32,000 nucleotides of DNA from Raphidiopsis brookii D9 (GCA_000175855.1 ACYB01000035.1:120001-152000), one strand, 5' to 3'. Numbered from the stretch's first letter, positions 3,535-32,000 are shown. The notes: generated by a model not told the origin, from the letters alone. Made by a program: numbers and translations.

Positions 3535-4032
3535 ATGATTGAAATGAGAGTCGCTGGTATAGCATTAGATGCCATAACCCGCACCCCGATCGTACTCCTG
3601 AAAGATAGTTCAGACCGTCGAGCTTTACCAATCTACATTGGTCAAGAGCAAGCTAGAGCTATCATGGGTGCTATGGAGCATCAAAAACCACCCAGACCTC
3701 TAACTCATGACCTCATGGTCAATATTTTGGAAGTATGGGATATGACCCTAGAAAAGGTCATTATTCATTCTTTACAAAAGGATACTTTCTATGCAGCTTT
3801 AATTGTTCAGCAAGGTGATGTGAAAAAGGAGATTGATTCTCGTCCCAGTGATGCGATCGCCATTGCTTTACGTACAAATTCGCCTATTTGGGTGATGGAA
3901 GAAGTGGTGGCGGATGCTTCTATTCCTGTAAACCGTGATGCTGATGAAGCTGAACAGGAAGCGTTTCGGGAATTTGTTTCCAATCTTCGTCCAGAGGATT
4001 TAATTAAACGATTTGGCAATAGTGATGGTTAA
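3535..4032 (+). CDS. bifunctional nuclease family protein (DUF151/BFN domain)
   Basis: 165-aa ORF. MRVAGIALDAITRTPIVLLKD...LPIYIGQEQARAI...RPLTHDL...RPSDAIAIALR matches the DUF151 pattern conserved in cyanobacteria. Confidence 0.75.
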   Translation: MIEMRVAGIALDAITRTPIVLLKDSSDRRALPIYIGQEQARAIMGAMEHQKPPRPLTHDLMVNILEVWDMTLEKVIIHSLQKDTFYAALIVQQGDVKKEIDSRPSDAIAIALRTNSPIWVMEEVVADASIPVNRDADEAEQEAFREFVSNLRPEDLIKRFGNSDG

Positions 4033-4108
4033 GGTGTTCACTGACCATTTTTGACCATGCTTCTTCTACAGCCATTTCTATAGTGGAACTACTCTCTAAA
4101 TTTGGGTC

Positions 4109-5239
4109 ATGAAATACCGTCGTTTTGGTAAAACTAATTTAGAATTATCCGTGTTTTCTCTGGGGACAATGCGGTGTATAACTGATGTGGAAATTTTCCA
4201 TCACACTATAGAAAAGGCTTTAGAATGGGGAATTAATCATTTGGAGACTGCTAGGGGTTACGGTAAAAGTGAGGAGTATTTAGGTACAGCTATTAAAACA
4301 GGTTTATCAGTACCCCGAAGTCGATTTCATATTACAACTAAAATTCCTCCTTGTGCAGATAATAGCACTATGGAGCGACATATTAATGAGTCTTTAGAGA
4401 AACTAAATGTTGATTATTTAGATGCTTTGGGTATTCATGGCTTGAATACAGAGCAGCATTGGCAATGGGTAAAGTCTAATAACGGCTGTATGAAAGCTAT
4501 ACAGAAAGCAATAGAAGATGGTAGAATTAAACATGTTGGTTTTTCTACCCATGGTAGTTTAAAGATTATTTTGGATGCCATTAATACAGATTATTTTGAG
4601 TTTGTGAATTTGCATTATTATTATTTTTTCCAGCGCAATAATTTAGCGGTTACAGCAGCAATAGAAAAAGATATGGGTGTATTTATTATTTCTCCTGCAG
4701 ATAAGGGTGGGAGACTGTATACACCATCGGATAAATTAAAGGAACTGTGTCAACCGTTCACTCCTCTGGAATTGAATTATCGGTTTTTGTTGAGTGATTC
4801 GCGAATTACTACCCTAAGTGTAGGTGCTGCAAATCCAGAGGAATTAAGCTTACCCTTGGCAGTTTGTGATAATATTAGTAATTTAACACCAGCAGAAGTC
4901 AAAGTTTTTAAAAACTTAGAAAATTACCAAACCCAAATTTTGGGAACTGATAAATGTAGTCAGTGTTATGATTGTTTACCCTGTCCAGAAAATATCAACA
5001 TCCCTGAGATATTAAGGTTACGAAATTTAACAGTTGCCTACAATATGATTGATTATGGCAAATATCGTTATGGAATGTTGGAAAATGCTGGTCATTGGTT
5101 TCTTGGTATGAGGGGAAACCGATGCACAGAGTGTGGTGATTGCTTACCCAAATGTCCTGAGAATTTGGATATTCCTCATTTGTTGCAAAATGCCCATGAA
5201 ACATTAAATGGCAAAACCAGCAGAAGATTATGGGATTAA
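4109..5239 (+). CDS. aldo/keto reductase with C-terminal 4Fe-4S-binding region
   Basis: 376-aa ORF. The N-terminal AKR fold has GINHLETARGYGKSEEYLG. The C-terminus carries two Cys clusters, CSQCYDCLPCP and CTECGDCLPKCP (CxxCxxCxxxCP type). Confidence 0.8.
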   Translation: MKYRRFGKTNLELSVFSLGTMRCITDVEIFHHTIEKALEWGINHLETARGYGKSEEYLGTAIKTGLSVPRSRFHITTKIPPCADNSTMERHINESLEKLNVDYLDALGIHGLNTEQHWQWVKSNNGCMKAIQKAIEDGRIKHVGFSTHGSLKIILDAINTDYFEFVNLHYYYFFQRNNLAVTAAIEKDMGVFIISPADKGGRLYTPSDKLKELCQPFTPLELNYRFLLSDSRITTLSVGAANPEELSLPLAVCDNISNLTPAEVKVFKNLENYQTQILGTDKCSQCYDCLPCPENINIPEILRLRNLTVAYNMIDYGKYRYGMLENAGHWFLGMRGNRCTECGDCLPKCPENLDIPHLLQNAHETLNGKTSRRLWD

Positions 5240-6234: not shown

Positions 6235-7282
6235 ATGCGACTTTCAGCTTCCTTGCAAACTATATTAACATACGGACTGGCTTGCCCACTTATCGCTGTG
6301 AATGTTTGGTTACTCTCTTTGTTGTTCCACTACTTCCAGCATCCAATTACTATTCTCAGCATCGCAGCTATTTTAGCTTTTCTGCTTAACTACCCTGTCC
6401 AGTTACTGGAAAAGGCCAGGATTACTAGAACTTACTCAGTAATCATAGTTTTAGTCATCACTTTAACCCTATTGGTGATTCTAGGTTTTACCCTAGTCCC
6501 CATGTTAGTGGAACAAACAACCCAGCTGCTCAGGAATATCCCTGATTGGGTGACTTCCAGTCAAGAAAATCTAAGTAAGTTACAGGTTTTAGCTCGTCAG
6601 AAGCGCTTACATATTGATTTTAGTGTGGTTAGCAGTCAAATCAATGCCAGTGTGCAAAACATTCTACAACAAATTGCCTCCGGTGCAGTGGGTTTTGCTG
6701 GAACTTTATTGTCCGCACTGTTAAATATAGTTCTAGTCGTCGTATTGGCATTCTATATGCTAATATATGGCGATCGCTTGTGGTCTGGGTTAATTAATCA
6801 ACTACCATCCTATATTGGATTACCCCTGAGCAAATCCTTACAATTGAATTTTCATAACTTTTTTTTTGAGTCAACTGTTGTTAGCATTATTCATGGTAAT
6901 TGCTTTAACACCAATTTTTTTATTTTTAAGAGTTCCCTTTGCTCTATTATTTGCGATTATTATAGGAATCTCCGAACTAGTTCCTGTGATTGGTGCTACT
7001 TTGGGTATAGGGTTAGTGACCTTACTAGTATCCTTACAGACTTGGTGGTTAGCATTTCCAGTAGCAATGGTGGCAATTATCATACAACAGATCAGAGATA
7101 ATATCCTAGCACCCAAATTACTTGGTAATTTTACCGGACTCAATCCCCTATGGATTTTCATTGCCATTTTGATGGGATTTGAAATTGGGGGTTTGCTGGG
7201 GACTTTAGTCGCAGTACCGATTGCGGGTACTATCAAGAGTACAATTGATGCTATTAAAAACAACAAATCTGGAATAACTTAG
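6235..7282 (+). pseudogene. AI-2E family transporter (PerM/YhhT-like), split by a 1-nt frameshift in a T9 run
   Basis: ORF 6235..7101 (frame 1) loses membrane-protein character after ...LQLNFHNFFF. ORF 6866..7282 (frame 2) carries the typical AI-2E C-terminus (ISELVPVIGATLG...AVPIAGTIK). The frames join at the T9 run 6859-6867. Removing one T gives HNFFLSQLLLALF and a 348-aa protein. Confidence 0.8.
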
Positions 7283-8221: not shown

Positions 8222-9390
8222 ATGAAGGCAATGATTCTAGCAGCGGGTAAAGGCACTCGTGTACGCCCCATTACATATACCATTCCTAAACCAATGATTC
8301 CCATTCTACAAAAGCCAGTAATGGAGTTTTTGCTAGAGTTGTTACGTAAACATGGGTTTGACCAGATTATGGTTAATGTGAGCCATTTAGCTGAGGAGAT
8401 AGAAAATTATTTCCGTGATGGTCAAAGGTTCGGAGTGCAGATTGGTTATTCTTTTGAGGGTAAAATAGACGATCAAGGGAAATTAGTGGGGAAGTTATTG
8501 GTTCAGCTGGGGGAATGCGACGTATCCAGGATTTCTCACCTTTTTTTGATGACACATTTGTGGTTTTGTGTGGTGATGCTTTAATTGATTTAGACCTAAC
8601 TGCAGCAGTAAAATGGCATAGGTCTAGGGGTGCAATGGCTACTATTATTACTAAGTCTGTTCCCCAAGAGGAAGTTTCTAGTTATGGCGTGGTGGTCACA
8701 GATAACGAAAACCGAGTGCGAGCTTTTCAGGAAAAACCATCCGTTGAAGAAGCTCTCAGCACCAATATTAACACGGGTATTTATATCTTTGAGCCAGAAG
8801 TATTTAAGTATATCCCATCGGGGGTTCAATATGACATTGGTAGTCAGTTGTTCCCCCACCTGGTAGAAATTAATGCTCCCTTTTATGCTATCCCCATGGA
8901 TTTTGAATGGGTAGATATTGGCAAAGTACCTGACTATTGGCGCGCAATTCGCGGTGTTTTGCTGGGAGAAATTAAAAATGTGCAAATCCCCGGTTATCAA
9001 GTGGCTCCCAGTATTTATACTGGTTTAAATGTAGCTGTAAATTGGGATCGGGTGGATATTACTGGACCTGTTTATATTGGTGCTATGACTCGAATTGAAG
9101 ATGGGGCCAAAATTGTCGGACCATCCATGATTGGACCAAATTGCTGGATTTGTGGTGGTGTGACTGTGGATAATAGCGTAATTTTTGAATGGTCTCGCTT
9201 AGGTCCGGGAGTTCGCTTGATCGATAAGTTGGTATTTGGACGCTATTGTGTAGATAAGATGGGCACCGCAATTGATGTGCAAGCAGCAGCTTTAGACTGG
9301 CTAATTACTGATGCACGTCAAACCCCACCCGCTGAAATTCCTCCAGAACACCAAGCGATCGCCGAGTTCTTGGGAGGAATTACAGTTTAG
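8222..9390 (+). pseudogene. sugar-phosphate nucleotidyltransferase (mannose-1-phosphate guanylyltransferase-like, with C-terminal left-handed beta-helix), split by a 1-nt frameshift
   Basis: ORF 8222..8584 starts MKAMILAAGKGTRVRPITYTIPKPM (the NTP-transferase G-loop). ORF 8515..9390 continues the fold (FVVLCGDALIDLDL...YGVVV...). The second frame is already open from 8464 and reads GEVIGSAGGMRRIQ. The junction is at the G4 run 8488-8491. Adding one G gives a 389-aa protein. Confidence 0.8.
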
Positions 9391-13974: not shown

Positions 13975-16085
13975 GTGTTAAAATTCTTTGCAGACAGAGG
14001 TGGAACATTTACAGACATTGTAGCTTTAACCGATAATCAGGACATAATCAATAGATTATTAAACTACCCCCAGAGATTTTTAATTGTTCCCTTACCCAAT
14101 CAACAATGGGTAATAGTTTATAAATTATTGTCAGAGAATCCCGATCAGTATACAGATGCGGTAATTCAAGGAATTCGTCATATTATGGGAGTTCCCCCCA
14201 ACAGAGTATTCCTGGTCAAACCATAGAAGTGATTAAAATGGGAACAACAGTAGCAACAAATGCACTACTAGAAAGACATGGAGACCGGGTTGTTTTAGTC
14301 ATTAATAAAGGCTTTAAAGATGCTTTAAGAATTGGTTATCAAAACCGTCCTAACATTTTCGCCCGACAGATAATTTTACCCACCATGCTGTATGAAGCAG
14401 TAATTGAAGTAGATGCTAGATATGATGCTCAAGGTAAGGAGTTATTTCCCGTAAATTATCAGAAAATTAAATATGACCTACAAACAATTCATCAAACAGG
14501 AATTGACAGTTGCGCCATCGTTCTTATGCATGGCGATCGCTATCCCAAACATGAACAAGAAATAGGAAAAATTGCCGAAGAAATTGGATTTACCCAAATT
14601 TCCATTTCCCATGAAGTTAGTCCCCTAATGAAACTTGTGAGTCGGGGAGACACAACAGTTGTGGATGCTTATTTAACACCCATATTACGTCGTTATGTCA
14701 ATCAGGTTTCCAGTCAAGTTCCCGAGGTCAAATTAATGTTTATGAAATCTGATGGTGGGTTAACTGATGCAGAGAAATTTCAAGGTAAAGATAGCATTTT
14801 AAGTGGGCCTGCTGGTGGTATTGTTGGTGCAGTACAAACTAGTAAAAGAGCAGGATTTAATTTAATCATCACCTTTGATATGGGAGGAACAAGTACAGAT
14901 GTGGCCCATTTTAAAGGGGAGTATGAAAGACAATTAGATTCGGAAATAGCAGGTGCGCGGATGCGAGTTCCCGTCCTAGCGATTAATACCATTGCTGCAG
15001 GTGGAGGTTCGATTTTATCCTTTGATGGATCCACCTATCGTGTAGGTCCGGAATCTGCGGGTTCAAATCCCGGACCTGCATCCTACAGACGGGGGGGACC
15101 ATTAACAGTTACAGATGCTAATATTATGCTGGGCAAGATTCAACCCCAATACTTTCCAGCAGTTTTTGGAAATGATGGTCAATTACCTTTAGATAGGGAA
15201 CTAGTTTTGCAGAAGTTTACAGACTTGACCCAGAATATGACCTTAACTACAGGAAAATCCTTTTCTCCTCCACAGGTAGCATCAGGATTTATTGCTATTG
15301 CTGTGGAAAATATGGCTAATGCCATTAAAAAAATTAGTCTACAACGGGGTTATGATATTAGCGAATATGTATTATGTTGTTTTGGAGGTGCGGGTGGACA
15401 GGTAGCTTGTTTAATTGCGGATACATTAGGCATGAAAAAGATATTTTTGCATCCCTTTGCTGGTGTACTGTCAGCTTATGGCATGGGTTTAGCTGATGTG
15501 AGAGCTACCAGAGTCACCGGAGTAGAAAAACCCTTGAGTCAGTCCTTAATTCCCGAATTACAGAAATTAGTTACCCGTTTAGAAATTTCCGCTCATCAAG
15601 AATTAAACCCAGCAGAAAATCAGGTAAATCAGTTGTCAGTCAGGGTGATTAAAAACCTTAACCTCAAGTATGAGGGAACTAATTCTACCTTATCCATCGA
15701 TTTTAGAAACGATATAGAATTAATACAGCAGCAATTTGCTAGGGAACACAAATCAAGATATGGGTTCATTCAGCCAGAAAAAACCTTAATTGTGGAATCT
15801 ATTTTTGTCGAGGTGATTCAACAGATGGAGACACCAGAAGAACCAATCATTTTCCGTCAACTTCCCCAGGGGCAAATTCCCCAACCTTTAGAAGTAGTTG
15901 AGGTATTTACTGCCAATAGGTGGTGCCATACTCCAGTTTATAAAAGAGAAGATTTACAACCGGGAGATATTATCCCAGGTACTGCTATTATTGTGGAGAA
16001 AATTAGCACTATTGTCGTTGAAACCAATTGGCAAGTAAAATTAACTGAACGTAATCATTTAATTTTGGAAAAAGTAGAAAGATGA
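13975..16085 (+). pseudogene. hydantoinase/oxoprolinase A-type subunit (HyuA family), split by a 1-nt frameshift
   Basis: ORF 13975..14226 starts (GTG)LKFFADRGGTFTDIVA, the hydantoinase A N-terminal motif. ORF 14229..16085 continues with KMGTTVATNALLER, FDMGGTSTDV and so on. The second frame read upstream gives QSIPGQTIEVIKMGTT. The junction is at the C6 run 14194-14199. Adding one C gives 703 aa. Confidence 0.8.
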
Positions 16086-17670: not shown

Positions 17671-18467
17671 CTAAACTTCCACTACTACGGGTGCATGATC
17701 ACTAGGCTGTTCTAGCTTTCTAGGACTAATATCAATTAAGCAACTCTTAGCCTGTTTATAAAGTACATCTGTTAAGTAGTGATGGTCTATTCTCCATCCC
17801 GAATTTCTTTTAAAAGCTCCCGTACGATAGTCCCACCAACTATAATTACCCCCTGGGAATTAAACTTGCGAAACCCATCCCCAAAACCCAGGTTCAAAAT
17901 CTCTCTTAAAGCTTCTCTCTCTGGTAAGGATGCCATAATCTGATTTTTTGTATCCACTTGTTTATAAATGTCTATATCTTCCAGTGCAATGTTAAAATCA
18001 CCACACATAATAATGTGAGAATTAGATTTCAGCAAAACCTCTAGGTATGTTTTTAATACTGCTAACCACTGCAATTTATATTGATATTTCTCACTTCCTA
18101 CTGCTGAACCATTGGGAACATACAGATTAATAATTCTCACTTCATCTACAATACCCGTGATCACTCTTTTCTGGTCATCCCATTCAGGTTCCAGATTTTC
18201 CAGCACCTGACAAAACCCTGTACTTACACTTTTCATTGGCTGGCGACTAATTAATGCTACACCATTGTAAGCCTTTTGTCCATAAATATAAGTGTGATAG
18301 CCTACGTCATGAAATACAGTTAGGGGAAAATCCCTATCTATGACCTTGGTTTCCTGTAGACACAGAACATCAACATTATTTTCCCCTAACCAGCTAATAA
18401 CCTGTTCTAGACGAGTACGAATTGAATTGACATTCCAAGTGGCAATTTTCATGAGCGGATTGAGCAA
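17671..18467 (-). pseudogene. xth: exodeoxyribonuclease III, C-terminal catalytic region displaced by a 1-nt frameshift
   Basis: ORF 17787..18467 starts MKIATWNVNSIRTRL...LCLQETK (ExoIII/AP endonuclease). It ends in nonsense after ...FRKFNSQG. The adjacent frame encodes NYSWWDYRTGAFKRNSGWRIDHHYLT...PSDHAPVVVEV, which includes the catalytic His, up to the stop at 17671-17673. The junction is at the G5 run (C5 on the plus strand, 17849-17853). Adding one G gives 265 aa. Confidence 0.85.
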
Positions 18468-20587: not shown

Positions 20588-22084
20588 ATGCAATCCATAG
20601 ATCTACGTACTCAGCAAAATTTAGAAAAATCCTATACTCGTGAAGATTGGCAACAGGGATATGAGTCCCTGAAAGAAGAGTATGACTATTGGATTGACGA
20701 GGTAGAAGGTGAAATACCCAAAGAGCTGGAAGGGACAGTTTTTAGAAATGGTCCTGGGTTATTAGATATCAACGGACAAAGAATACATCATCCCTTTGAT
20801 GGTGATGGGATGATTAGTCAAATTGTATTTAGTCAAGGTCGAGCCCACTTCCGGAATCGATTTGTACAGACTGAGGGTTATTTGGCGGAAAAGAAAGCGG
20901 GTAGAATTCTTTATCGCGGAGTGTTTGGAACCCAAAAACCTGGTGGTTGGTTAGCTAATATACTGGACTTTAAGACCAAGAATATTGCCAATACAAATGT
21001 TATTTACTGGGGTAAAAAACTACTGGCATTGTGGGAAGCAGCGGAACCTTATTCATTAAATCCTTATACCTTAGAAACCTTGGGCAAAGAATATTTTAAT
21101 CATGGTTTATCATCAGGAGAAGCTTTCAGTGCCCATCCCCGCGTAGATCCCCAGGGCAAACTGGTTAACTTTGCCATTGAACCAGGAATAAAAACAAAGA
21201 TTACAATTTTTGAACTCAACCAAGATGCTGAAGTGGTAAGTAAGCAGAATCATAAAATTGATGGTTTTTGCTTCATTCATGATTTTGTTATTACGGAAAA
21301 TTATTGTATATTCTTCCAAAACCCCCTCAGTTTTAACCCCATTCCTTTTGCCTTGGGACAAGTTGGTGCAGCACAATGTATTAAACCGGAAAAAAATCTC
21401 CCTACGAAAATTATTCTCATTCCCCGTCAGCACAGTCCCATGGTCTCTTCGGGAGTAAAAGTTTTAGAAACCACAGCAGGGTTTATTTTTCACCATGCTA
21501 ATGGTTTTGAAATAGACCATAAAATTATTGTTGATTCTATCTGCTATGACTCCCTATCCTTAACAGACATTGAAAGCAATCAAGATTACCGACAAACAAA
21601 CTTTGATGCGATCGCCCCTGGAAAGTTATGGAGATTTGAGCTAGATTTATTGCAGAAAAAAGTGACAGCCAAATTAATAAATGATCGGGCCTGTGAATTT
21701 CCTGCTATTCATCCGGATCACGTAAGCAGACCTTACCGTTATTTATACATGAGTGCTGCTCATAATCCCCGGGGAAATGCTCCTTTACAAGCCATTTTAA
21801 AAATTGATTTAGAATCGGGGAAACAACAGATTTGGAGTGCAGCACCGAGGGGTTTCATGGGTGAGCCCATCTTTATTCCCCATCCTCATGGTCAAGAAGA
21901 AGATGCAGGATGGATTGTGGGCTTGGTTTATAATGCAGAACATCACCGTTCATATATAGTAATTTTAGATGCTAATGACCTAGAAAAGGGAACAATAGCT
22001 AAATTACATTTAAAGCATCATATTCCCCATGCACTACATGGTAGTTTTACAAGGGATGTGTTATTAAATAACATAGACCCGTAG
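20588..22084 (+). CDS. carotenoid cleavage oxygenase (RPE65/CCD family, apocarotenoid oxygenase-like)
   Basis: 498-aa ORF with FRNGPGLLDINGQRIHHPFDGDGMI. The four iron-ligand His contexts are present: FSAHPRVDP, FIHDFVITENY, FHHANGFE and HIPHALHGSF. Confidence 0.9.
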   Translation: MQSIDLRTQQNLEKSYTREDWQQGYESLKEEYDYWIDEVEGEIPKELEGTVFRNGPGLLDINGQRIHHPFDGDGMISQIVFSQGRAHFRNRFVQTEGYLAEKKAGRILYRGVFGTQKPGGWLANILDFKTKNIANTNVIYWGKKLLALWEAAEPYSLNPYTLETLGKEYFNHGLSSGEAFSAHPRVDPQGKLVNFAIEPGIKTKITIFELNQDAEVVSKQNHKIDGFCFIHDFVITENYCIFFQNPLSFNPIPFALGQVGAAQCIKPEKNLPTKIILIPRQHSPMVSSGVKVLETTAGFIFHHANGFEIDHKIIVDSICYDSLSLTDIESNQDYRQTNFDAIAPGKLWRFELDLLQKKVTAKLINDRACEFPAIHPDHVSRPYRYLYMSAAHNPRGNAPLQAILKIDLESGKQQIWSAAPRGFMGEPIFIPHPHGQEEDAGWIVGLVYNAEHHRSYIVILDANDLEKGTIAKLHLKHHIPHALHGSFTRDVLLNNIDP

Positions 22085-23651: not shown

Positions 23652-24380
23652 GTGAAAATCTTTCTGGAAAATATTCACAAGTCCTACGGTAAAAGAGTAA
23701 TTGTCAATCGTGTTAGTCTTTCTGTATCTCAAGGTGAAATAGTTGGTTTGTTAGGGCCCAATGGTGCTGGTAAGACCACAACATTTTACATTGCTACAGG
23801 TTTAGAAAAACCAGATCAAGGTAAGGTATGGTTAGATGAACTAGATGTTACTTCCATGGCCATGCACAAGAGGGCTAGATTGGGTCTTGGCTATCTTGCA
23901 CAGGAAGCGAGTATTTTTCGTCAACTATCTGTAAAAGAAAATATACTTTTAGTACTGGAGCAAACCAATGTGCCAAGGCGAGAATGGTCTAGTAGATTAG
24001 GAGAACTATTAACAGAATTTCGCCTGCAAAAAGTTGTTAATAGTAAGGGTATTCAACTTTCTGGAGGTGAACGACGACGTACAGAGTTAGCTAGAGCGTT
24101 AGCAGCAGGTAGGGAGGGCCCGAAATTTCTGTTTTTGGATGAACCCTTTGCTGGGGTTGACCCCATCGCAGTGGCAGAAATTCAGCAAATTGTTGCCCGA
24201 TTGAGAGAGCGTGGTATGGGTATTTTAATCACTGACCACAATGTTAGAGAAACCCTGGCCATTACTGACAGAGCCTATATCATGCGGGAAGGACAAATCT
24301 TAGCCTTTGGCATTGCTGATGAGCTTTACAACAATCCTCTTGTGCGTCAATACTACCTAGGCAACCACTTTCTTGTTTAA
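23652..24380 (+). CDS. lptB: LPS export ABC transporter ATP-binding protein LptB
   Basis: Walker [10 protein letters not shown], signature LSGGERRR, Walker B FLFLDEP and H-loop TDHN. The ORF track starts at GTG 23619. The in-frame GTG at 23652 ([15 protein letters not shown]) gives the usual 242-aa LptB length, so I prefer it. Confidence 0.85.
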
Positions 24381-24498: not shown

Positions 24499-25674
24499 AT
24501 GGATTATCATCAGACCAAACCATTTTATACGATTAACTCCCTGATGCCATTTTCTATTATGGATCGCTACTTGGCGATGCAGTTATTACCCATCTTTCTA
24601 TTTGGTGTTGGTGCTTTTACTTCCGTAGTCTTAGCCATTGACAGTTTATTTGAGTTGTTGCGCAAAGTAGTAGAATCCGGACTACCAATTAACATTGCAT
24701 TAAAAGTGTTTGTGCTGAAATTGCCCTATGTCATGGTTTATTCCTTTCCCATGTCTACTTTACTAGCAACTTTAATGACTTATAGCAAGTTATCCAGTGA
24801 CAGTGAACTGATAGCTTTAAGAGGATGTGGTGTGAGTGTTTATCGAATGGTACTAACAGCAGTTTTGCTAAGTGGTTTAGTTACTGGAATGACCTATGTA
24901 TTTAATGAATATATTTCCCCCGCAGCCAATTATGAAGCCAGTATTACTCTAGAACAGGCATTAAAATCAGATCAACCATCATTTAAACAAGAGAATATTT
25001 ATTATCCAGAATATCGAGAAGAAAAAACAAAAGATGGGGGTACTAGTAGACTATTAGCTCGCTTATTTTATGCTGATGAATTTGACGGCAAAAAAATGAA
25101 AGGACTAACAATTATTGATCGTTCTAAAGCGGGAGTAAATCAAATTGTTGTATCTGAATCTGCCCAATGGAATGCATATAAACAAGTTTGGGACTTTTAT
25201 AATGGTACTATTTATTTAGTCGCTCCTGATCGTTCCTATCGAAATATTTTGCGTTTTGAACATCAGCAATTAAAATTACCCAGCACACCTTTAATTGTGG
25301 CTAAAAATAGTCGAGACTATGAAGAAATGAATATTGCCCAATCATTACAACAACTAGAAATTGAAAAGTTAGCAGGTAATCCCCAAAGAATTAAAAAACT
25401 GGAGGTCAGAATTCAACAAAAAATAGCCTTTCCCTTTATTTGTATAATTTTTGGTTTAGTTGGGTCAGCTATGGGAACTATCCCCCAACGCACTGGTAGG
25501 GGAAGGAGTTTTGGTGTCAGCATTATAGTCATTTTTATTTATTATTTATTACTATCCGTTTGTGGAGCTTTAGCACAAGCAGAAATTTTATCTCCCTTTG
25601 TAGGTGCATGGTTACCCAATCTGTGTGGGTTAGGGATGGGAATTGTAATTCTTATGCAATTTTCCCAAAAGTAG
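24499..25674 (+). CDS. LptF/LptG (YjgP/YjgQ) family LPS export permease
   Basis: 391-aa ORF. It has three N-terminal TM helices, a large periplasmic beta-jellyroll insert and three C-terminal TM helices. MDRYLAMQLLPIFLFGVGAFTSV is typical of the family. Confidence 0.8.
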   Translation: MDYHQTKPFYTINSLMPFSIMDRYLAMQLLPIFLFGVGAFTSVVLAIDSLFELLRKVVESGLPINIALKVFVLKLPYVMVYSFPMSTLLATLMTYSKLSSDSELIALRGCGVSVYRMVLTAVLLSGLVTGMTYVFNEYISPAANYEASITLEQALKSDQPSFKQENIYYPEYREEKTKDGGTSRLLARLFYADEFDGKKMKGLTIIDRSKAGVNQIVVSESAQWNAYKQVWDFYNGTIYLVAPDRSYRNILRFEHQQLKLPSTPLIVAKNSRDYEEMNIAQSLQQLEIEKLAGNPQRIKKLEVRIQQKIAFPFICIIFGLVGSAMGTIPQRTGRGRSFGVSIIVIFIYYLLLSVCGALAQAEILSPFVGAWLPNLCGLGMGIVILMQFSQK

Positions 25675-25693: not shown

Positions 25694-26395
25694 TTAACGA
25701 TTGTGGTTTGAGCACACAACCCGAAAACCTAAGTTGTTCTTGTCAGAGAGGTGACGATTACGGGAACCACAACCACAGTGTTGAGCAGAATCACACCAAG
25801 AACCACCACGTAACACATGGCCGCGAAAAACACCAAAAATTCCCTTCTCAACCCATGGACTACTATCCTTTGGTATATCTTGGTAGTGATCATGCCAATG
25901 ATCTAAACACCATTCCCAAACGTTCCCGTGCATATCGTATAATCCAAATGGATTGGGAGGGAAACTTCCCACCTCCGTAGTTTGTTTGCGATATTGTCCT
26001 TGAGGTGCTAAACTTTGTTTATGGTCTCCATGATAGTTGACCAAATCTGTTGTAATATTGTCACCAAAATGAAATTCTGTGCTGGTTCCCCCCCTGCAAG
26101 CATATTCCCACTGTGCTTCACTGGGTAAGGTGTATATCCTTCCAGTAATCTGACTGAGTTTCTCGCAGAAATCAACTGCTTGATTCCACTTTACCCTTTC
26201 TACTGGACGTTTGTCACCCTTGAAATAAGAAGGGTTATCTCCAGTAACAGCTTGATATTGTTCTTGTGTTATCTCGTATTTTCCCATGAAAAAACTGGGC
26301 ACTGTGACTAAATGTTCAGCACTCTCCTCCGGGTTTCCCCGATTTTCAGCTGAGTTGATGGTAAATGTCCCTCCTGGAATTTCTACCATTTCTAG
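25694..26395 (-). other. FGE-sulfatase (formylglycine-generating enzyme/SUMF1-like) domain (aa ~1047-1279)
   Basis: LEMVEIPGGTFTINS...FFMGKYEITQEQYQAV...NPSYFKG...PVERVKWNQAVDFCEKLS...YTLPSEAQWEYACRGGT...NPFGLYDMHGNVWEWCLD...VLRGGSWCDSAQHCGCGSRNRH...NLGFRVV matches the family motifs. Confidence 0.85.
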
Positions 26396-29300
26396 GGTGA
26401 TATCATCACCTAAATCCTCCACAAAGTATATGACACTAGCATCAGTTTTGATTATCTCTCCGAAATTTTTCTTACTAACTACTTCAAAGCTCAGGATTTT
26501 TAAGTTAAGGTAATTACGAAGTTTAATGGTCAGTGTTAATCCTCCCCTCTCCCAAAACTTGAGGTTTTCCCCTAGGTCTAAACTACCAAGATTTAAAGCT
26601 CGGTTAAAATCCTCTATTGCTCCCTGTCTATCTCCCAATTCGTAGCGAATGTTCCCTCTCTTGTTATACGCTTCAACATAATTTGAGTTAATGTTTAAAG
26701 CCTGATTGAAATCCTCTATTGCTCCCTGGTGATCTCCCAGCTCATAGCAAACAATTGCTCGATTGTTGTATGCTTCTGCATAATAAGGATTGATTTGGAT
26801 AGCTTGACTAAAATCATCTTTAGCCCATTCCCTATCTCCTAAATCTGTGTATGCAACCCCCCGATTGTTGTATGCTTGAGCGTAATTGGGGTTAATGTTT
26901 AAAGCCTGATTAAAATCTTCTATGGCTTTTTGCCTATTCCCCAATTCATAGCGTGCGTATCCCCTGTTAATATATGATTCCGTATAATTATAGGCAATTA
27001 TAATAGCTTGACTAAAATCTTCTATAGCCAATTGCCTCTCGCCCAAACAAATACGCACAATTCCCCTATTATTATAGGCTTGAGCATAGTTAGAGTTAAT
27101 ATTAACAGCGTGATTGAAATCCTCCATTGCTCCCTGATTATCCCTCAACTCATAGCGAACAATTCCCCTATTGTTATAAGCTTGAGCATAGTTGGGATTA
27201 ATATTAAGAGCATGATTGAAATCGTTAATTGCTCCCTGGTAATCTCCCAGCTCATAGCGAACAATTCCCCTATTGTTGTAAGCATCAGCATAACTAGCGT
27301 CAATATCCAGAGCATGATGGAAATCATTTATCGCTCCTTGACTATCTCCTAACTTATAAAGGGCAGTTCCTCTGCCAACATAGGTATCAGCACAATTAGG
27401 CTTAATTTCTATAGATCGGGTGTAATCATCTATTGCGCTCTGGTAGTTTCCTAAATCATAGTAAGCAATTCCCCGATTATAGTAGGCATCAGCATAATCA
27501 GGACTAATATTCAGGGCTTGAGTATAATCATCTATTGCCCTCTGATAATCTGCTATATCACTGCGAACAACTCCTCGATTGTTGTATATGTAAGCATAAT
27601 CAGGATTAAGATTCAGGGCCTGGGTATAATCATCTATTGCTCCCTGGTTGTCTCCCAACTCACTGCGGGTCAGTCCCCGTGCAATGTAGGTTTCAGGATC
27701 ATCAGGGTTAATATTGAGTGCTTGAGTGTAATTATTTACGGCTCCTGGCTTATCTCCCAGTTCACTACAAACCATTCCCCAAGCGTAGTAGGCTTGATCA
27801 TAATTAGGATTAATATTGAGTGCTTGAGTATAATCATCTACCGCCCCTTGTTTATCTCCTAAGCTAGTGCGAGCAATTCCTCGGTTGTAGTAGGCTTGAG
27901 CATAGTTAGGATTAATATTGAGTGCTTGAGTATAATCATCTATTGCTCCTTGTTTATCTCCTAGGTTAAAACGAGCAATTCCCCGACCGTAGTAGGCCTG
28001 GGCATAGTTAGGATTAATATTGAGTGCTTGAGTATAATCATCTATTGCTCCCTGGTTGTCTTCCAAGTTAATACGGGTAGTTCCCCAGTTGTGATAAACT
28101 TCCGCATAGTTGGAATCAACTCTTAAAGCTTGAATGTAATCATCTATTGCTCCTTGATAATTTCCCAAGTAAGTACGAATAGCTCCCCGATTATTATATG
28201 CTTGGGCATAATTGGGATCAATTTTGATAGCTTGGGTGTAATCATCCATGGCCGCCTTTTGAGAACCCAGGTCACTACGAATTATGCCCCGGTTATAATA
28301 GGCACTAGCAAATTTAGGATTAAGATTCAAGCTGTGGGTATAGTCGTCTATTGCTCCCTGCTTATCTCCTAATTGACTGCGAGCAACACCTCGATTGTGG
28401 TATGCTTGGGCATAATTAGGATTAATTCTAATTGTCTGGTTAAAATCATTGATAGCTTCTTGATAGTTTCTTAGGTCACAGTAAACAAGTCCTCTAGCAG
28501 CATAACCATCAGCAAAGTGGGGATTTATCGTGATAACCTGATTAAAATCATCTATTGCTCCCTGCTTATCCCCTAAATCATATCGAGCAAGTCCCCGTTT
28601 AGTATAAGCATCAAAAAAAGCAGAATTAAGGTGAAGGGTTTGGTTAAAATCCTCTATTGCTTTTTGAAGATACCCCATGTCCCTATGGGCGACTCCGCGA
28701 CTATAAGCAGCTAAAGCAAGATTAGGATTAATATCAAGAGCTTGGTTAAAATCATCTATTGCTCCTTGCCCATCTCCCAAATTGGTCCGGGCAATTCCCC
28801 GTTCCATATATGGCTGAGGCAGGTTAGAATTAATACTTATGGACTGGGTAAAATCATTTATTGCCCCCCGATTATCTCCTAAGTCGCTGCGGGCAATTCC
28901 TCGGCAAAGGTAGGTATGGGCATTCTCTTCCAGATCAATTTCTAAAACTGCCTGATTGCCTAGGGAAATAATAGTGTCAGTCTGTCTTGGTGATAGGGTG
29001 CTAGAGATAACCTGTAGTTGTGCCAAATGAAGTGAAAATGTGGCTAATGCCTGTTCAAATTCAGTTTCTACATGTTGCAATGTTTCCAATTCTGTCCTAT
29101 AATCAACTGGATCGGGAGGAGATATAAAAGGATTGGGGGTAAAAGTGGTGTTTCCACCAAATGTGCGATGAAACCAGATAGCTAACTCCCTAGCTATCTT
29201 TAATATGGTCAAAGCCTGACTAGGATCACTAGTATGCTCATAGGTAGCTCTATCACTAACAACCCTGACTTGATGGAATAGGAGGGCTACCTTTTGTGGT

Positions 29301-29533
29301 AGGATTCCTTTTAGCTCTAATTGGCGCAATAGATCTGTTTGGTTTTCAACAGTGGAATGGAAGTTTCCCGTTCTAGCAGCAATTAATTGAGTTAAGAGTT
29401 GGCCAAAGTAGCACAATTTAACTAAACAAGTTTTGGGTTGATTCCACACATAGCCCTCAGCTAAAACACTAAGACGTAATAACTGTAAATCATGGGATTG
29501 CAAAAATTGGAAATTAACAGATGCTGTTATCAT
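25694..29533 (-). CDS. 1279-aa multidomain protein: DUF4145-like N-terminal domain, coiled linker, 23 TPR repeats and a C-terminal FGE-sulfatase (SUMF1-like) domain
   Basis: Intact ORF. Its ATG overlaps the upstream helicase stop (ATGA). See the domain sub-features below. Confidence 0.85.
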   Translation of the reverse strand: MITASVNFQFLQSHDLQLLRLSVLAEGYVWNQPKTCLVKLCYFGQLLTQLIAARTGNFHSTVENQTDLLRQLELKGILPQKVALLFHQVRVVSDRATYEHTSDPSQALTILKIARELAIWFHRTFGGNTTFTPNPFISPPDPVDYRTELETLQHVETEFEQALATFSLHLAQLQVISSTLSPRQTDTIISLGNQAVLEIDLEENAHTYLCRGIARSDLGDNRGAINDFTQSISINSNLPQPYMERGIARTNLGDGQGAIDDFNQALDINPNLALAAYSRGVAHRDMGYLQKAIEDFNQTLHLNSAFFDAYTKRGLARYDLGDKQGAIDDFNQVITINPHFADGYAARGLVYCDLRNYQEAINDFNQTIRINPNYAQAYHNRGVARSQLGDKQGAIDDYTHSLNLNPKFASAYYNRGIIRSDLGSQKAAMDDYTQAIKIDPNYAQAYNNRGAIRTYLGNYQGAIDDYIQALRVDSNYAEVYHNWGTTRINLEDNQGAIDDYTQALNINPNYAQAYYGRGIARFNLGDKQGAIDDYTQALNINPNYAQAYYNRGIARTSLGDKQGAVDDYTQALNINPNYDQAYYAWGMVCSELGDKPGAVNNYTQALNINPDDPETYIARGLTRSELGDNQGAIDDYTQALNLNPDYAYIYNNRGVVRSDIADYQRAIDDYTQALNISPDYADAYYNRGIAYYDLGNYQSAIDDYTRSIEIKPNCADTYVGRGTALYKLGDSQGAINDFHHALDIDASYADAYNNRGIVRYELGDYQGAINDFNHALNINPNYAQAYNNRGIVRYELRDNQGAMEDFNHAVNINSNYAQAYNNRGIVRICLGERQLAIEDFSQAIIIAYNYTESYINRGYARYELGNRQKAIEDFNQALNINPNYAQAYNNRGVAYTDLGDREWAKDDFSQAIQINPYYAEAYNNRAIVCYELGDHQGAIEDFNQALNINSNYVEAYNKRGNIRYELGDRQGAIEDFNRALNLGSLDLGENLKFWERGGLTLTIKLRNYLNLKILSFEVVSKKNFGEIIKTDASVIYFVEDLGDDITLEMVEIPGGTFTINSAENRGNPEESAEHLVTVPSFFMGKYEITQEQYQAVTGDNPSYFKGDKRPVERVKWNQAVDFCEKLSQITGRIYTLPSEAQWEYACRGGTSTEFHFGDNITTDLVNYHGDHKQSLAPQGQYRKQTTEVGSFPPNPFGLYDMHGNVWEWCLDHWHDHYQDIPKDSSPWVEKGIFGVFRGHVLRGGSWCDSAQHCGCGSRNRHLSDKNNLGFRVVCSNHNR
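26576..28921 (-). repeat. array of 23 contiguous, in-phase 34-codon (102-bp) TPR units
   Basis: Every unit fits A.AY.NRG..R..LGD.QGAI.D(F/Y).QAL.INPNY with no spacer residues (aa 205-986). A 37-bp identical core, ttaggattaatattgagtgcttgagtataatcatcta, recurs at 27804, 27906 and 28008, exactly 102 bp apart. Confidence 0.9.
29159..29533 (-). other. DUF4145-like domain (aa 1-125 of the 1279-aa protein)
   Basis: The pattern FQFL..HDLQLLRLSVLAEGYVWNQPKTCLVKLCYFGQLLTQLIAARTG...NQTDLLRQLELKGILPQKVALLFHQVRVVSDRATYEH...ALTILKIARELAIWFHRTF follows the helical DUF4145 layout known from N-termini of type I restriction HsdR subunits. This is recognition by eye; no HMM was run. Confidence 0.55.
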
Positions 29534-32000
29534 ACCTCAATAATCTGGTATATTTTTAGGATAAATAAATATAAGTTTACCGGAGCTTGTTTAATTTTTT
29601 GTATTAACAAATCCACTTGTTGTCCCTTATTGCGGAACCATTCTGTTGACCAAATTCGATGAATAGTCCAACCCAGTCCTTCGAGAACTTTTTGTCTAAT
29701 ACGATCCCTATCTCGTGCTGTATGGGAACTGTGATAGGATGCACCATCGCACTCAATTCCCAATAGGAATTCTCCTGGAGAATCTTTGTGCGCAATAGCC
29801 AAATCAATTCGATAACCTGAACATCCGACTTGGGTACGGATTATATATTCCTGCAATGAGGAATGTCGGCTTATTGTTTCATATACATCTTCCTCAAATG
29901 GCGAATCAAATTTAAGTGTGTTGGTATAAGAATCACCCTGTAAACGCTCACCGCCAGTAGCAACATATTGTAAATAATCGCGCAGCATTCTGATACCTTC
30001 ACTTTCGGTACCAGCTAGGTCAATGTCACCTGCACCTATAGAAGATATTAAAACAATTTTGACTTTAGCCCGTGTAATAGCGACATTCAGCCTCCTTTCT
30101 CCACCTTTTTTGTTAAGCGGTCCAAAATTCAAAGTTAGTTTACCTTCACGATCGCGCCCATATCCAACACTAAGCAGAATTAGATCCCGCTCATCACCTT
30201 GTACATTTTCTAAAGCTTTGAGAAAAAACCGATCAGAGTCATCCCGACAAAAAGCTTCCAACTCGGGATTCTTTCTTACTAATATATCTATCTGTTCCTG
30301 AATGGCATTCTGTTGAGCTTGACTAAATGCGATAATCCCAAGGGACTGGTGAGAATTTTGTTCAAGATTTTTTCTAACATGTGCCAAGGTCAAATCAGCA
30401 ACAGTTTTTGCCTCAATTTGGTTATCTCTACGCCCACCGCGATCATAAATACCATCGGAGACGTACTCAAACCATACCCCCAACTCCTGATTTTGAATGG
30501 GGTTTGGAAATGTAACCAATTTTGAGTCATAAAAATGACGATTTGAAAAAGCAATTAATCTTTCATCTCGACTACGATAGTGCCACTTAAGTGTATATCC
30601 AAACATAAAGTTTGAACATTCATCTAAGACACTTTCATAATTTGCATCATCTTCATCATCTATATCTTCCTCATTCTCAACTCTGGAGAAAAAAGATGTT
30701 GGTGGAAGTTGCTTTCTATCGCCAATAACAATTACTTGATCGCAACGGATGATTGAAGAAACAACATCTTCAGTTCGCAGTTGTGAAGCTTCATCAAAAA
30801 TGAGAACGTCAAAGTGAATTGCACTAGGGTCAATGTACTTACTCACTGACAAAGGACTCATCATCCAGCAAGGCTTGAGGGTTGAAACCAGTTGTTTGAT
30901 ACCCTTTTCTTTGTCATTAAGAAGTTTACGAATCGGTAAGTGTTTCCGCTTTTTGGTTTCTTCTTTTCTCAATGTTCTCAACTCGGAACTACCATCTGTA
31001 GTTTCTTGAAACCTTTGCCACCTTTGTGCATGAATTTGTTTTAATCGTCGTTTAGCAATATCTAACTGACTATAGTCAAGTTCAGCAAAGTCTTTAATTT
31101 GCCGTTCATGCACATCAATTTTAAAGTTCTTCAACTCAGGTTTTTGAGCAAGAATGGAGTCAAGACAAGTTTGATAAATCAGTTTTTCCAGAGCTGTAAA
31201 CCAATAATTAGAATCGATCTTATTCCTACGCAAAGCATCCAAAAATTTCCTACATCCTAAATCTTCCAACTTTTGACAAGTTTCCTTGTAGGTCAGCCAC
31301 CCTTGCAGATCAGATAAACCAGAATGGGCAATATCCAAAAATTCTTTCAGTTTAGTAAGGGGGATTTTGTCGAAAGATAATCCGTCATCAGTGATATCAT
31401 TTTCCTGAAAATGCGACGATAAGAAATGAATTCCTTTCTCAATTTCCACAAAGTTTGATTCAAGCTTTTTAAGCAACTCCTGAACTTTACGTTTTCCTGA
31501 TGGAGAAACTAAAATGTTTTGGATATTTTCAACACAATCATCTAAAAAAGAATATTGCCGTAAATCAATTAACCAGCTTAAAGCCTCCTCAATAGTCCGT
31601 ACATCTGATTGTCTGGCAATTTCCGGATCGAACAGAGAACCAAAAGCTACACGAGCAGGGTAGTCACTTTGACTTAGCTTTATTCGAATATTTCTAACTT
31701 GCACTGCATGTGATAAATCTCGTTGTAATTCTAGATGAGAAACTGGGTGTTTTATAATTAATTTTTGTAAGTGCTGGCGATCTCTCCAATAGTTACGATT
31801 AAAAATACGAATCAGCCAGAAGCGGCTATAATTCTGATATCTTTGAGATAACTGAGGCAAATCTAGATCTGGAGAAAATAAGTCGGGAGAATATCTTTGT
31901 TTCAAGTGAGATTCAAAACTCTCAAGTACTTGAACATCATCTTTCAATTTTTTAATGGCATCTTCGGCATGGGAAATATTTATTTTAGACCAATTTTCTG
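29530..32000 (-). CDS. SF1 (Upf1/DNA2-like, AAA_11/AAA_12) helicase with C-terminal DUF559/Vsr-like endonuclease domain; 5' end outside the window
   Basis: The frame is open to the window edge (the codons upstream of the track's TTG at 31947 read ...KIGLKINISHAEDAIKKL). Helicase motifs: II FDEASQ (30784-30795 region), III VIVIGDRKQLPPT, WHYRSRDERLIAFSN, V GDERDLILLSVGYGRD, VI LNVAITRAKVKIVLISS. Walker A must lie beyond 32000. A long coiled insertion precedes motif II, as in DUF4011-type helicases. Confidence 0.85.
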   Translation of the reverse strand, partial: ENWSKINISHAEDAIKKLKDDVQVLESFESHLKQRYSPDLFSPDLDLPQLSQRYQNYSRFWLIRIFNRNYWRDRQHLQKLIIKHPVSHLELQRDLSHAVQVRNIRIKLSQSDYPARVAFGSLFDPEIARQSDVRTIEEALSWLIDLRQYSFLDDCVENIQNILVSPSGKRKVQELLKKLESNFVEIEKGIHFLSSHFQENDITDDGLSFDKIPLTKLKEFLDIAHSGLSDLQGWLTYKETCQKLEDLGCRKFLDALRRNKIDSNYWFTALEKLIYQTCLDSILAQKPELKNFKIDVHERQIKDFAELDYSQLDIAKRRLKQIHAQRWQRFQETTDGSSELRTLRKEETKKRKHLPIRKLLNDKEKGIKQLVSTLKPCWMMSPLSVSKYIDPSAIHFDVLIFDEASQLRTEDVVSSIIRCDQVIVIGDRKQLPPTSFFSRVENEEDIDDEDDANYESVLDECSNFMFGYTLKWHYRSRDERLIAFSNRHFYDSKLVTFPNPIQNQELGVWFEYVSDGIYDRGGRRDNQIEAKTVADLTLAHVRKNLEQNSHQSLGIIAFSQAQQNAIQEQIDILVRKNPELEAFCRDDSDRFFLKALENVQGDERDLILLSVGYGRDREGKLTLNFGPLNKKGGERRLNVAITRAKVKIVLISSIGAGDIDLAGTESEGIRMLRDYLQYVATGGERLQGDSYTNTLKFDSPFEEDVYETISRHSSLQEYIIRTQVGCSGYRIDLAIAHKDSPGEFLLGIECDGASYHSSHTARDRDRIRQKVLEGLGWTIHRIWSTEWFRNKGQQVDLLIQKIKQAPVNLYLFILKIYQIIEV
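29623..29901 (-). other. DUF559/Vsr-like (restriction-endonuclease fold) domain at the helicase C-terminus
   Basis: FEEDVYETI...GYRIDLAIAHKDSPGEFLLGIECDGASYHSSHTARDRDRIRQKVLEGLGWTIHRIWSTEW is the typical layout of the endonuclease module appended to DUF4011/Hhe-type helicases. Confidence 0.7.

Follow-up and report, generated by a model that had tools for sequence, protein, structure and literature searches.

Is the pair of minus-strand genes at one end of a 32,000-nt stretch of the Raphidiopsis brookii D9 genome (GCA_000175855.1, ACYB01000035.1:120001-152000; hereafter the window) a two-component defense system, or do two separate genes simply lie next to one another there? The first of them (gene 1) encodes a helicase-nuclease and runs beyond the end of the window, and the second (gene 2) encodes a large protein with a DUF4145-like head, an array of tetratricopeptide repeats (TPRs) and an FGE-sulfatase tail. 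A preliminary description of the window, made from the sequence alone, had noted that the stop codon of gene 1 overlaps the start codon of gene 2 and had proposed that the two are translationally coupled and form an undescribed conflict or defense module, a proposal that was said to fail if the two gene families were not conserved as neighbors elsewhere. Both open reading frames (ORFs) were present as claimed (Table 1). Comparison of the locus with ten related loci and with 83 loci from outside Raphidiopsis/Cylindrospermopsis led us to favor, with some reservation, the explanation that they are two adjacent but separate genes, a stand-alone defense-type helicase-nuclease and an independent head-TPR-FGE protein. 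The domains that had been described were confirmed, and a conflict-related nature was plausible for each gene taken singly, because the helicase family is represented in anti-phage databases and the DUF4145 head is found on defense-type proteins; the coupled, undescribed two-gene module was not supported.

The stop/start overlap in the D9 assembly

In the window, the TGA of the helicase gene (29530-29532) overlaps the ATG of gene 2 (29531-29533) in the sequence ATGA. This overlap was found only in the D9 assembly. In the ten related loci the helicase ends with ...LLIQKINKLR* and is followed by an AT-rich, untranslated spacer of 41-54 nt, after which come the GAGG motif and ATG of gene 2. Only the window has ATTAAACAAG; the other loci have ATTAACAAG at the corresponding place. 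The extra A at 29590 shifts the frame, with the result that the ORF crosses the spacer to a TGA that overlaps the ATG. The overlap is present in the D9 assembly, but the translational coupling that had been based on it derives from a single added nucleotide that is unique to this assembly.

The strain nearest to D9 (GCA_002114155.1, locus L086) was 99.67% identical to the window over 18 kb, and the two differed by four indels, each of which was a 1-nt difference in the length of a homopolymer (14193, 17848, 29552, and 29590). At 14193 the window has C6 and L086 has C7, and at 17848 they have C5 and C6, respectively. Two of the indels shorten genes of the window, with hydantoinase A having 618 aa rather than 703 aa and an Exo_endo_phos protein having 226 aa rather than 260 aa. 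The differences at 14193 and 17848 are probably sequencing errors in the D9 assembly. Since all four indels were differences in homopolymer length and two of them truncated housekeeping genes, the extra A at 29590 is probably an error of this type as well. D9 was reportedly sequenced by pyrosequencing. Translational coupling of the two genes is thus not conserved, and may not exist at all.

The spacer (window 29534-29580; 14144-14197 in locus L001 of the sister strain Raphidiopsis sp. BLCC-F218, hereafter F218) measured 41, 44 or 54 nt according to strain. The 54-nt form, seen in F218 and in the C. raciborskii loci, had a 10-nt direct duplication (ACTCCGGTAA beside AGCTCCGGTAAACTTA). No terminator-like site was found between the helicase gene and gene 2, and their shared strand, the 41-54 nt spacing and the lack of such a site indicate that they are probably co-transcribed. 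A sigma-70-like site (CCGACA, 18 nt, TATAAT; 10 of 12 matches) was present on the minus strand at 29840-29869, inside the 3' end of the helicase gene and approximately 300 nt upstream of gene 2, and was retained in L086 despite the loss of the helicase in that strain, which is described below. This site could represent an independent promoter for gene 2, with the proviso that such sites occur at a chance rate in the region.

Neighborhoods outside the genus

The neighbors of the helicase family outside the genus were studied in 80 remotely related loci, representing many phyla of bacteria and archaea, that were among the matches listed from a genome scan with a helicase alignment and were mostly about 30% identical, and in three cyanobacterial orthologues (60-71% identity) that were examined one by one. 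Searches with parts of gene 2 (phmmer) and with a hidden Markov model (HMM) of the DUF4145 family identified no gene-2-like neighbor in any of the 80 listed loci, and neither the linker of gene 2 nor a DUF4145 domain was found beside the helicase there. An all-against-all comparison of the neighbors identified no family that was present in more than three of the same 80 loci. The three cyanobacterial orthologues stood alone, in three different housekeeping contexts. Outside Raphidiopsis/Cylindrospermopsis, then, the two gene families were neighbors at 0 of 83 loci, the outcome that had been named beforehand as speaking against their partnership. As the helicase had no conserved neighbor and its orthologues were solitary, the family acts as a single-gene unit, which matches the way it has been catalogued in databases.

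The only close cyanobacterial match among those listed in the genome scan (64% identity) was in Calothrix parasitica NIES-267 (L011 10001-14914), where the match to the helicase spanned 4.9 kb rather than approximately 4.1 kb. This suggests an insertion within the helicase gene, which may be an intein, an insertion sequence (IS) element or an extra domain.

The helicase-nuclease

The 822-codon fragment of the helicase visible in the window was identical at 822 of 822 residues to P0406 (R. brookii D9 CRD_02051), a hypothetical protein of 1389 aa that shares the unusual C-terminal tail of the window sequence. The complete protein, which the preliminary description had called for, added a DUF4011 domain and the Walker A region to the domains seen in the fragment. 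Pfam analyses of P0406 identified DUF4011 at residues 24-186, AAA_12 at 1035-1219 and an MTES_1575/DUF559 Vsr-like nuclease at 1268-1369. The AAA_11 match was split, the better of its two stretches being at residues 305-444 (the Walker A region) and the other near motif II, and a long insert parts Walker A (at about residue 340) from the DEAS of motif II (at about residue 977). The helicase motifs G334-Q342 (Walker A, GPPGTGKS) and D976/E977/A978/S979 (motif II) were invariant in alignment A1, as were the nuclease residues D1306, D1325, and G1326, which are present in the window sequence. The protein thus combines superfamily 1 (SF1) helicase motifs with an intact Vsr-like nuclease core, as do proteins of the Hhe/ProA/PDC-S37 class.

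Database profiles placed the protein more closely within this class. P0406 matched the PADLOC model PDC-S37 (PDLC05009) with 1384.7 bits over residues 13-1373 (profile positions 6-1342 of 1550), and P0001, a full-length orthologue that is 94% identical, matched the same model with 1385.3 bits. P0001 also matched the NCBIfam model NF058533, "anti-phage protein ProA" (1158.2 bits, E=0, profile positions 354-1706 of 1903), but missed its equivalog cut-off of 1500 bits. The NCBIfam Hhe model (NF042953) gave P0001 a score of 778.3 bits compared to a cut-off of 2000 bits, with the best stretch at profile positions 1049-1684 of 1797, and the PADLOC Hhe model (E=2e-153) aligned with the C-terminal half only. 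Because these scores lie below both NCBIfam cut-offs, the helicase is the equivalog of neither named protein, and by its profile matches it is best assigned to the Hhe/ProA class as a PDC-S37-type member. Its helicase-plus-Vsr layout had been likened to that of Hhe, and although the domains were confirmed, PDC-S37 and ProA proved to be nearer relatives of the protein than Hhe. With a full-length match to a PADLOC candidate, and with its family in anti-phage databases, the helicase can hardly be termed undescribed. The family is also abundant, having 3244 database clusters at E<=1e-10, and proteins of approximately 1310-1390 aa are common in Nostocales.

Searches of the literature found no description of PDC-S37 and no experimental characterization of PDC-S37/ProA-like helicase-nucleases in cyanobacteria, and a 2026 domain-centric discovery paper mentioned none of the domains of the helicase or gene 2. 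Gene 1 is best explained as a solitary gene in which an SF1 helicase of the Upf1/DNA2-like type is joined to a Vsr-like MTES_1575 endonuclease. Judging from the PDC-S37, ProA and Hhe families, its product would need no partner, moving along foreign or aberrant nucleic acid at the expense of ATP and bringing its own nuclease there.

Gene 2: the DUF4145/HEPN-like head

Residues 1-160 of gene 2 matched the HsdR subunit of type I systems at its N-terminus (NCBIfam PRK11448, 2e-33), and matched the PADLOC models REase_I and PDC-M16A over roughly their first 200 positions. The DUF4145-like head that had been described could not be recognized by the Pfam DUF4145 model alone, which gave E=0.16 only. 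However, homologues that are about 50% identical to the head are annotated as PF13643, and a family HMM built from 150 representatives matched it with E ~1e-54, and on the grounds of these homologues and this profile we assign the head to the DUF4145 family. An exhaustive HMMER search showed that 1368 representative clusters carry the domain. An AlphaFold2 model of the head, made from a 7-sequence alignment, was all-helical (pLDDT 79.9). The top Foldseek matches of the model in the PDB were all HEPN proteins (2hsb, 2q00, and HEPN toxins), with E values of only 0.2-0.5, and its comparison with 2hsb/2q00 gave TM scores of 0.72-0.75 and rmsd values of 2.5-2.7 Å. Anantharaman et al. 2013 (PMC3710099) put DUF4145 in the HEPN superfamily and reported its fusion to REase/SF2-helicase and UvrD proteins.

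The family signature R-x-x-G-N-x-A-x-H was 95-99% conserved in the 150 representatives (G 97%, N 97%, H 99%). Gene 2 keeps R90 and A96 of this signature and has S93, D94, and Y98 at the G, N, and H positions, and all its orthologues share the degenerate S-D...Y form. The catalytic-type signature (R..GN.A.H, the family version of Rx4-6H) is accordingly absent from gene 2. As the near-invariant G-N...H has been lost, any RNase activity that the head may have in other proteins is probably missing from gene 2.

The same head precedes a variety of other bodies, including HsdR, a GajB-like UvrD helicase, ResIII, AAA_30, a leucine-rich repeat array, a dynamin-like GTPase and PD-T4-6-like kinases (PADLOC 4e-104 for one of them). 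In P0362 (511 aa) it occurs with an FGE domain and no TPRs, and in P0279 it comes after a TPR array. As these domain arrangements show, the DUF4145/HEPN head is a promiscuous N-terminal module, and the range of bodies it carries suggests that it may be a general defense-associated adaptor or effector. The proteins P0362, P0279, P0270, P0282, P0277, and P0254 all retain an intact R..GN.A.H signature, unlike gene 2, and PADLOC PDC-M16A matches them over the first ~200 positions only. The dynamin-like protein that bears the head had a weak match to LeoBC.

Gene 2: the TPR array and FGE tail

The TPR array and the FGE-sulfatase domain of the preliminary description were both confirmed by Pfam, and the array was also evident from the 102-nt period of its DNA, the units of which are 60-73% identical to one another. 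A homology search with full-length gene 2 identified no orthologue, its matches being dominated by TPR proteins. The array was most like those of other cyanobacterial proteins with varied domains; these relatives carry a trypsin-like protease, kinase, TIR, CHAT, caspase or UvrD, and one is a kinase+TPR+FGE protein.

The nearest solved relatives of the FGE domain were PvdO (PDB 5hha, 2e-31) and TvpA (2y3c, 9e-31), the latter a target of a Treponema diversity-generating retroelement (DGR). Neither PvdO nor TvpA is known to be a formylglycine-generating enzyme, and both lack the catalytic Cys pair. The segment GGSWCDSAQHCGCG of gene 2 has cysteines near the catalytic positions of FGE, but with Cx5C spacing; the catalytic pair of a true FGE has Cx4C spacing. 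The end of the FGE tail (25715-25800, gene 2 residues ~1245-1273) reads RGGSWCDSAQHCGCGSR, and the extreme C-terminus is frameshifted between strains, with D9 ending in …RVVCSNHNR* and F218 in …RVCAQTTIVKHPHLSTFGKIA*.

That gene 2 might be a DGR target was considered and rejected. Strains whose DNA has diverged by 5% have an almost unchanged FGE domain, and for this reason the domain is not being diversified by a DGR. The window showed no template repeat, and its only repeats of at least 40 nt were the units of the TPR array and, elsewhere, a weak inverted repeat of 40 nt (21027-21066 / 24895-24934); there was no reverse transcriptase gene in the locus.

Taken as a whole, gene 2 has the look of a "head - repeats - FGE" protein that is complete in itself, and it would belong to the "head - TPR - FGE" kind, which filamentous cyanobacteria commonly possess. 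No catalytic effector is obvious in it, and it would serve as a binding, scaffold or decoy protein.

The pair within Raphidiopsis/Cylindrospermopsis

The pair was found only in Raphidiopsis/Cylindrospermopsis and always at the same site, in the order pyridoxal phosphate (PLP) enzyme, helicase, gene 2, convergent lptF/G. Gene 2 orthologues (1279-1291 aa) were confined to these loci. The synonymous divergence (dS) of the helicase and of gene 2 resembled that of the flanking genes. The ratio of nonsynonymous to synonymous divergence (dN/dS) was 0.18 for the helicase and 0.30 for gene 2 (the latter versus F218), compared to mostly 0.03-0.11 for the flanking genes; both genes are under purifying selection, which is weaker than that on the flanks. 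Vertical inheritance alone predicts both the adjacency within the genus and the flank-like dS.

L086 represents a natural knock-out of the helicase. In this locus a gene for an IS605-family OrfB/TnpB protein (365 aa; L086 17356-19129 region) replaces helicase codons 1-1169. The last 204 codons still align and a 184-aa ORF with the MTES_1575 domain is left, 85% of the helicase having been lost. Gene 2 is intact in L086, with 1279 aa, 99.2% identity and 10 substitutions. Thus, the strain can dispense with the helicase, and gene 2 persists in its absence, at least in the short term. The helicase was also fragmented in L096, but this case was discarded as housekeeping genes (lptF/G and a DNA methylase) were fragmented there too, indicating an error-prone assembly. 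The split gene 2 of the metagenome-assembled genome L089 was viewed with the same caution.

These findings were weighed against the possibility that the pair is a genus-specific two-component system, which is essentially the model of the preliminary description limited to one genus. Under that model, a PDC-S37-type helicase-nuclease recruited an effector-less HEPN*-TPR-FGE protein as its sensor or regulator; the TPR and FGE parts would bind an invader or self ligand, and the degenerate HEPN head would gate or recruit the helicase-nuclease. Several observations are in keeping with such a system and count against the independence of the two genes. They are adjacent, close, on the same strand and at one site in all intact loci of the genus, with the short spacer and no terminator-like site between them, and both are under purifying selection; yet adjacency among strains that are 95-99.7% identical is expected from shared descent alone, and the coupling signal was an assembly-specific indel. 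Gene 2, which is without an active effector signature, stands beside a helicase-nuclease, and a division of labor between them is logically attractive. Fusion of the DUF4145 head to HsdR/UvrD-type helicase-nucleases elsewhere is a further, weak "Rosetta stone" hint of a link, but the two families co-occurred at none of the loci outside the genus and the catalogues list the helicase as a single-gene family (PDC-S37, Hhe). The persistence of gene 2 without a helicase in L086 also argues against a two-component system, although the deletion may be recent, in which case the intact gene 2 of that strain is no proof of independence. A point against our own reading is that no demonstrated anti-phage activity of the PDC-S37 type was found in the literature. 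Co-expression of the two genes, or a functional link between them, is conceivable within the genus, and we regard the two-component system as doubtful, with perhaps a quarter of our belief behind it.

A more specific proposal, to which we give slightly less credence, is that a normally solitary PDC-S37/ProA-type helicase-nuclease gained, in this lineage, a dedicated partner without a catalytic domain that senses the invader, or acts as a decoy, and licenses the nuclease. If true, a defense system that otherwise consists of one gene would have evolved anew into a two-component form here. Our preferred explanation remains that of two separate genes. The independence of gene 2 is supported by its being intact in L086 and by the occurrence of its head and its TPR array in other fusions. 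The helicase and gene 2 would have become neighbors in the Raphidiopsis/Cylindrospermopsis lineage, with vertical inheritance from then on.

These findings are a caution that a stop/start overlap in a single assembly, together with a plausible sensor-effector story, is insufficient for a new defense system; here the two-gene case dissolved once ten related loci and another 83 from outgroups were compared. The locus provides a clean cyanobacterial example of the PDC-S37/ProA-like helicase-nuclease class, and HEPN(degenerate)-TPR-FGE is an added combination among DUF4145-headed proteins.

Composition and genomic setting of the locus

The lpt cluster adjoins the pair, as had been claimed, with lptA-like, lptB, and lptF/G genes. 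The other genes of the window are of housekeeping type, and include those for lipoate ligase, M23 peptidase, riboflavin synthase, ScpA, arginine decarboxylase, FtsH, hydantoinase A/B, an RPE65-family protein and FTR-beta (ferredoxin-thioredoxin reductase beta chain).

An accessory origin of the pair had been suggested based on apparent AT-richness and a lack of HIP1 sites. The GC content of gene 2 was 40.5%, above the window mean of 39.7%, and that of the helicase was 37.2%, which is inside the range of core genes (lptF/G 35.6%, ftsH 44.1%); the supposed AT-richness was therefore not confirmed. HIP1 sites were indeed absent, but this is weak evidence, as only 2.7 sites were expected and the deficit was not significant (Poisson P ~0.07). 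With GC content in the core-gene range, no significant HIP1 deficit and a dS equal to that of the flanks, an accessory island was rejected, and the compositional case for accessory origin fails.

The setting of the locus is also relevant to whether either gene functions in defense at all. The helicase-nuclease might instead be an enzyme retained in the lineage for DNA repair or for the processing of RNA/DNA hybrids, with gene 2 as a TPR scaffold of housekeeping type, and the position of the pair among core genes (ndhCKJ, PLP enzyme, lpt cluster, ftsH), with no defense island around it, is consistent with such roles. The fixed site, vertical inheritance in the genus and flank-like dS, and the housekeeping contexts of the cyanobacterial helicase orthologues, are consistent with them as well. 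However, the position of the helicase differed in every other genus examined, its deletion in L086 showed it to be dispensable, and the dN/dS values of the pair were 2-10 times those of the flanking housekeeping genes. Moreover, the best family matches of the helicase were to anti-phage models or candidates (PDC-S37, ProA, Hhe), and the DUF4145 head travels with defense enzymes (also PMC3710099). On this evidence we consider it improbable that neither gene has a role in defense.

In F218 (L001), other conflict-type genes were present within 10 kb of the pair, outside the span of the window. These were a pEK499_p136 (HEPN-family) gene, a C5 DNA methyltransferase gene and an SLFN_AlbA_2 + HATPase_c_4 gene (1811-2323, 3735-5054, and 23681-24143). 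Among the genes called in that locus there was no restriction-enzyme gene to accompany the methyltransferase, and genes of core photosynthesis and of the lpt cluster stand between the conflict-type genes and the pair.

Two other genes of the window look as though they may have been split by frameshifts, possibly through the same sort of assembly error as that considered above. The AI-2E transporter ORF matches no more of its profile than positions 4-206 of 327, and a further ORF, at 6866-7282, overlaps and follows it (window 6235-7282). In the NTP_transferase ORF the profile match begins only at position 95, and an overlapping ORF of 120 aa comes before it at 8222-8584 (window 8222-9390).

Table 1. 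Features of the helicase/gene 2 locus, in window coordinates.
Feature	Position	Strand	Remarks
lptF/G-family permease gene	24499..25674	+	Convergent with gene 2; fixed right-hand boundary of the locus
Gene 2	25694..29533	-	1279 aa, ATG start; DUF4145/HEPN-like head, TPR array, FGE-sulfatase tail
FGE-sulfatase (C-type-lectin-fold) domain	25715..26392	-	Pfam E=6.9e-49; residues 1048-1273
TPR array	26565..28902	-	~23 units of 34 aa; strict 102-nt DNA period; 21 TPR_1 stretches (Pfam)
N-terminal all-helical DUF4145 (HEPN superfamily) domain, predicted	29054..29533	-	Type of HsdR N-termini; profiles and AlphaFold2 model
Degenerate family signature R-V-V-S-D-R-A-T-Y	29240..29266	-	Family R-x-x-G-N-x-A-x-H (150 representatives)
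Helicase-nuclease gene, 3' part	29530..32000	-	822 codons of a 1389-aa protein; start codon and Walker A past the window end
Read-through helicase tail KQAPVNLYLFILKIYQIIEV*	29530..29592	-	From one extra A (T on the plus strand) at 29590
GAGG, Shine-Dalgarno-like motif	29535..29538	-	1 nt before the start codon of gene 2; shared by all related loci
MTES_1575/DUF559 Vsr-like PD-(D/E)xK endonuclease	29593..29898	-	Pfam E=1.5e-34; conserved RIDL...IECDG residues present
AAA_12 (RecA-like domain 2A)	30043..30597	-	Pfam E=3.5e-15; fragment residues 468-652
AAA_11, C-terminal part including motif II (FDEASQ)	30694..31122	-	Pfam; fragment residues 293-435

Comparison with known systems

The helicase-nuclease resembles PDC-S37 in being a full-length match to a single protein with the layout DUF4011 / SF1 helicase / MTES_1575 nuclease. 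It differs in that the last ~200 positions of the PDC-S37 profile are uncovered, and PDC-S37 is itself only a candidate for single-gene phage defense. ProA is the strongest named relative, with DUF4011, the helicase core and the Vsr-like nuclease all covered by the match, but approximately 350 N-terminal and 200 C-terminal positions of its profile have no counterpart in the cyanobacterial protein, and the score was below the cut-off. Judging by the names, ProA would be the protein of the DefenseFinder "Prometheus" system. The primary description of Prometheus is reportedly that of van den Berg et al. 2024 in Cell Host Microbe, the abstract of which is said to refer to "R-loop-acting enzymes". 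In one paper that cites this work, an R-loop-related mechanism is ascribed to Prometheus. Hhe likewise has a DUF4011-containing SF1 helicase and a Vsr/DUF559-type nuclease in one protein, but only its C-terminal half aligns (profile positions ~1050-1780), and the cyanobacterial protein is approximately 500 residues shorter. Hhe was reportedly presented by Gao et al. 2020 as a single-gene defense system.

For gene 2, the closest parallel to the head is the DUF4145 domain at the N-terminus of HsdR, with which it shares the sequence family and a position N-terminal to a large body; the AlphaFold2 model suggests a helical, HEPN-like fold as well. The two differ in signature, which is RxxSDxAxY in gene 2 and RxxGNxAxH in the family, and in the body, which is TPR+FGE rather than a nuclease-helicase. 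FGS-bearing conflict systems of multicellular bacteria have been discussed by Kaur et al. 2020 (PMC7159879). In contrast to the FGS proteins of Kaur et al. and Doré et al. 2024 (PMC10907252), gene 2 is without DGR hypervariability and its locus is without vWA-MoxR, a STAND NTPase or an effector-associated domain (EAD). Nevertheless, gene 2 is like these proteins in having its FGE/FGS domain C-terminal to everything else, in combining superstructure-forming repeats with a possibly inactive enzymatic head, and in having a TPR array that is homologous to those behind protease, kinase, TIR, CHAT, and caspase heads.

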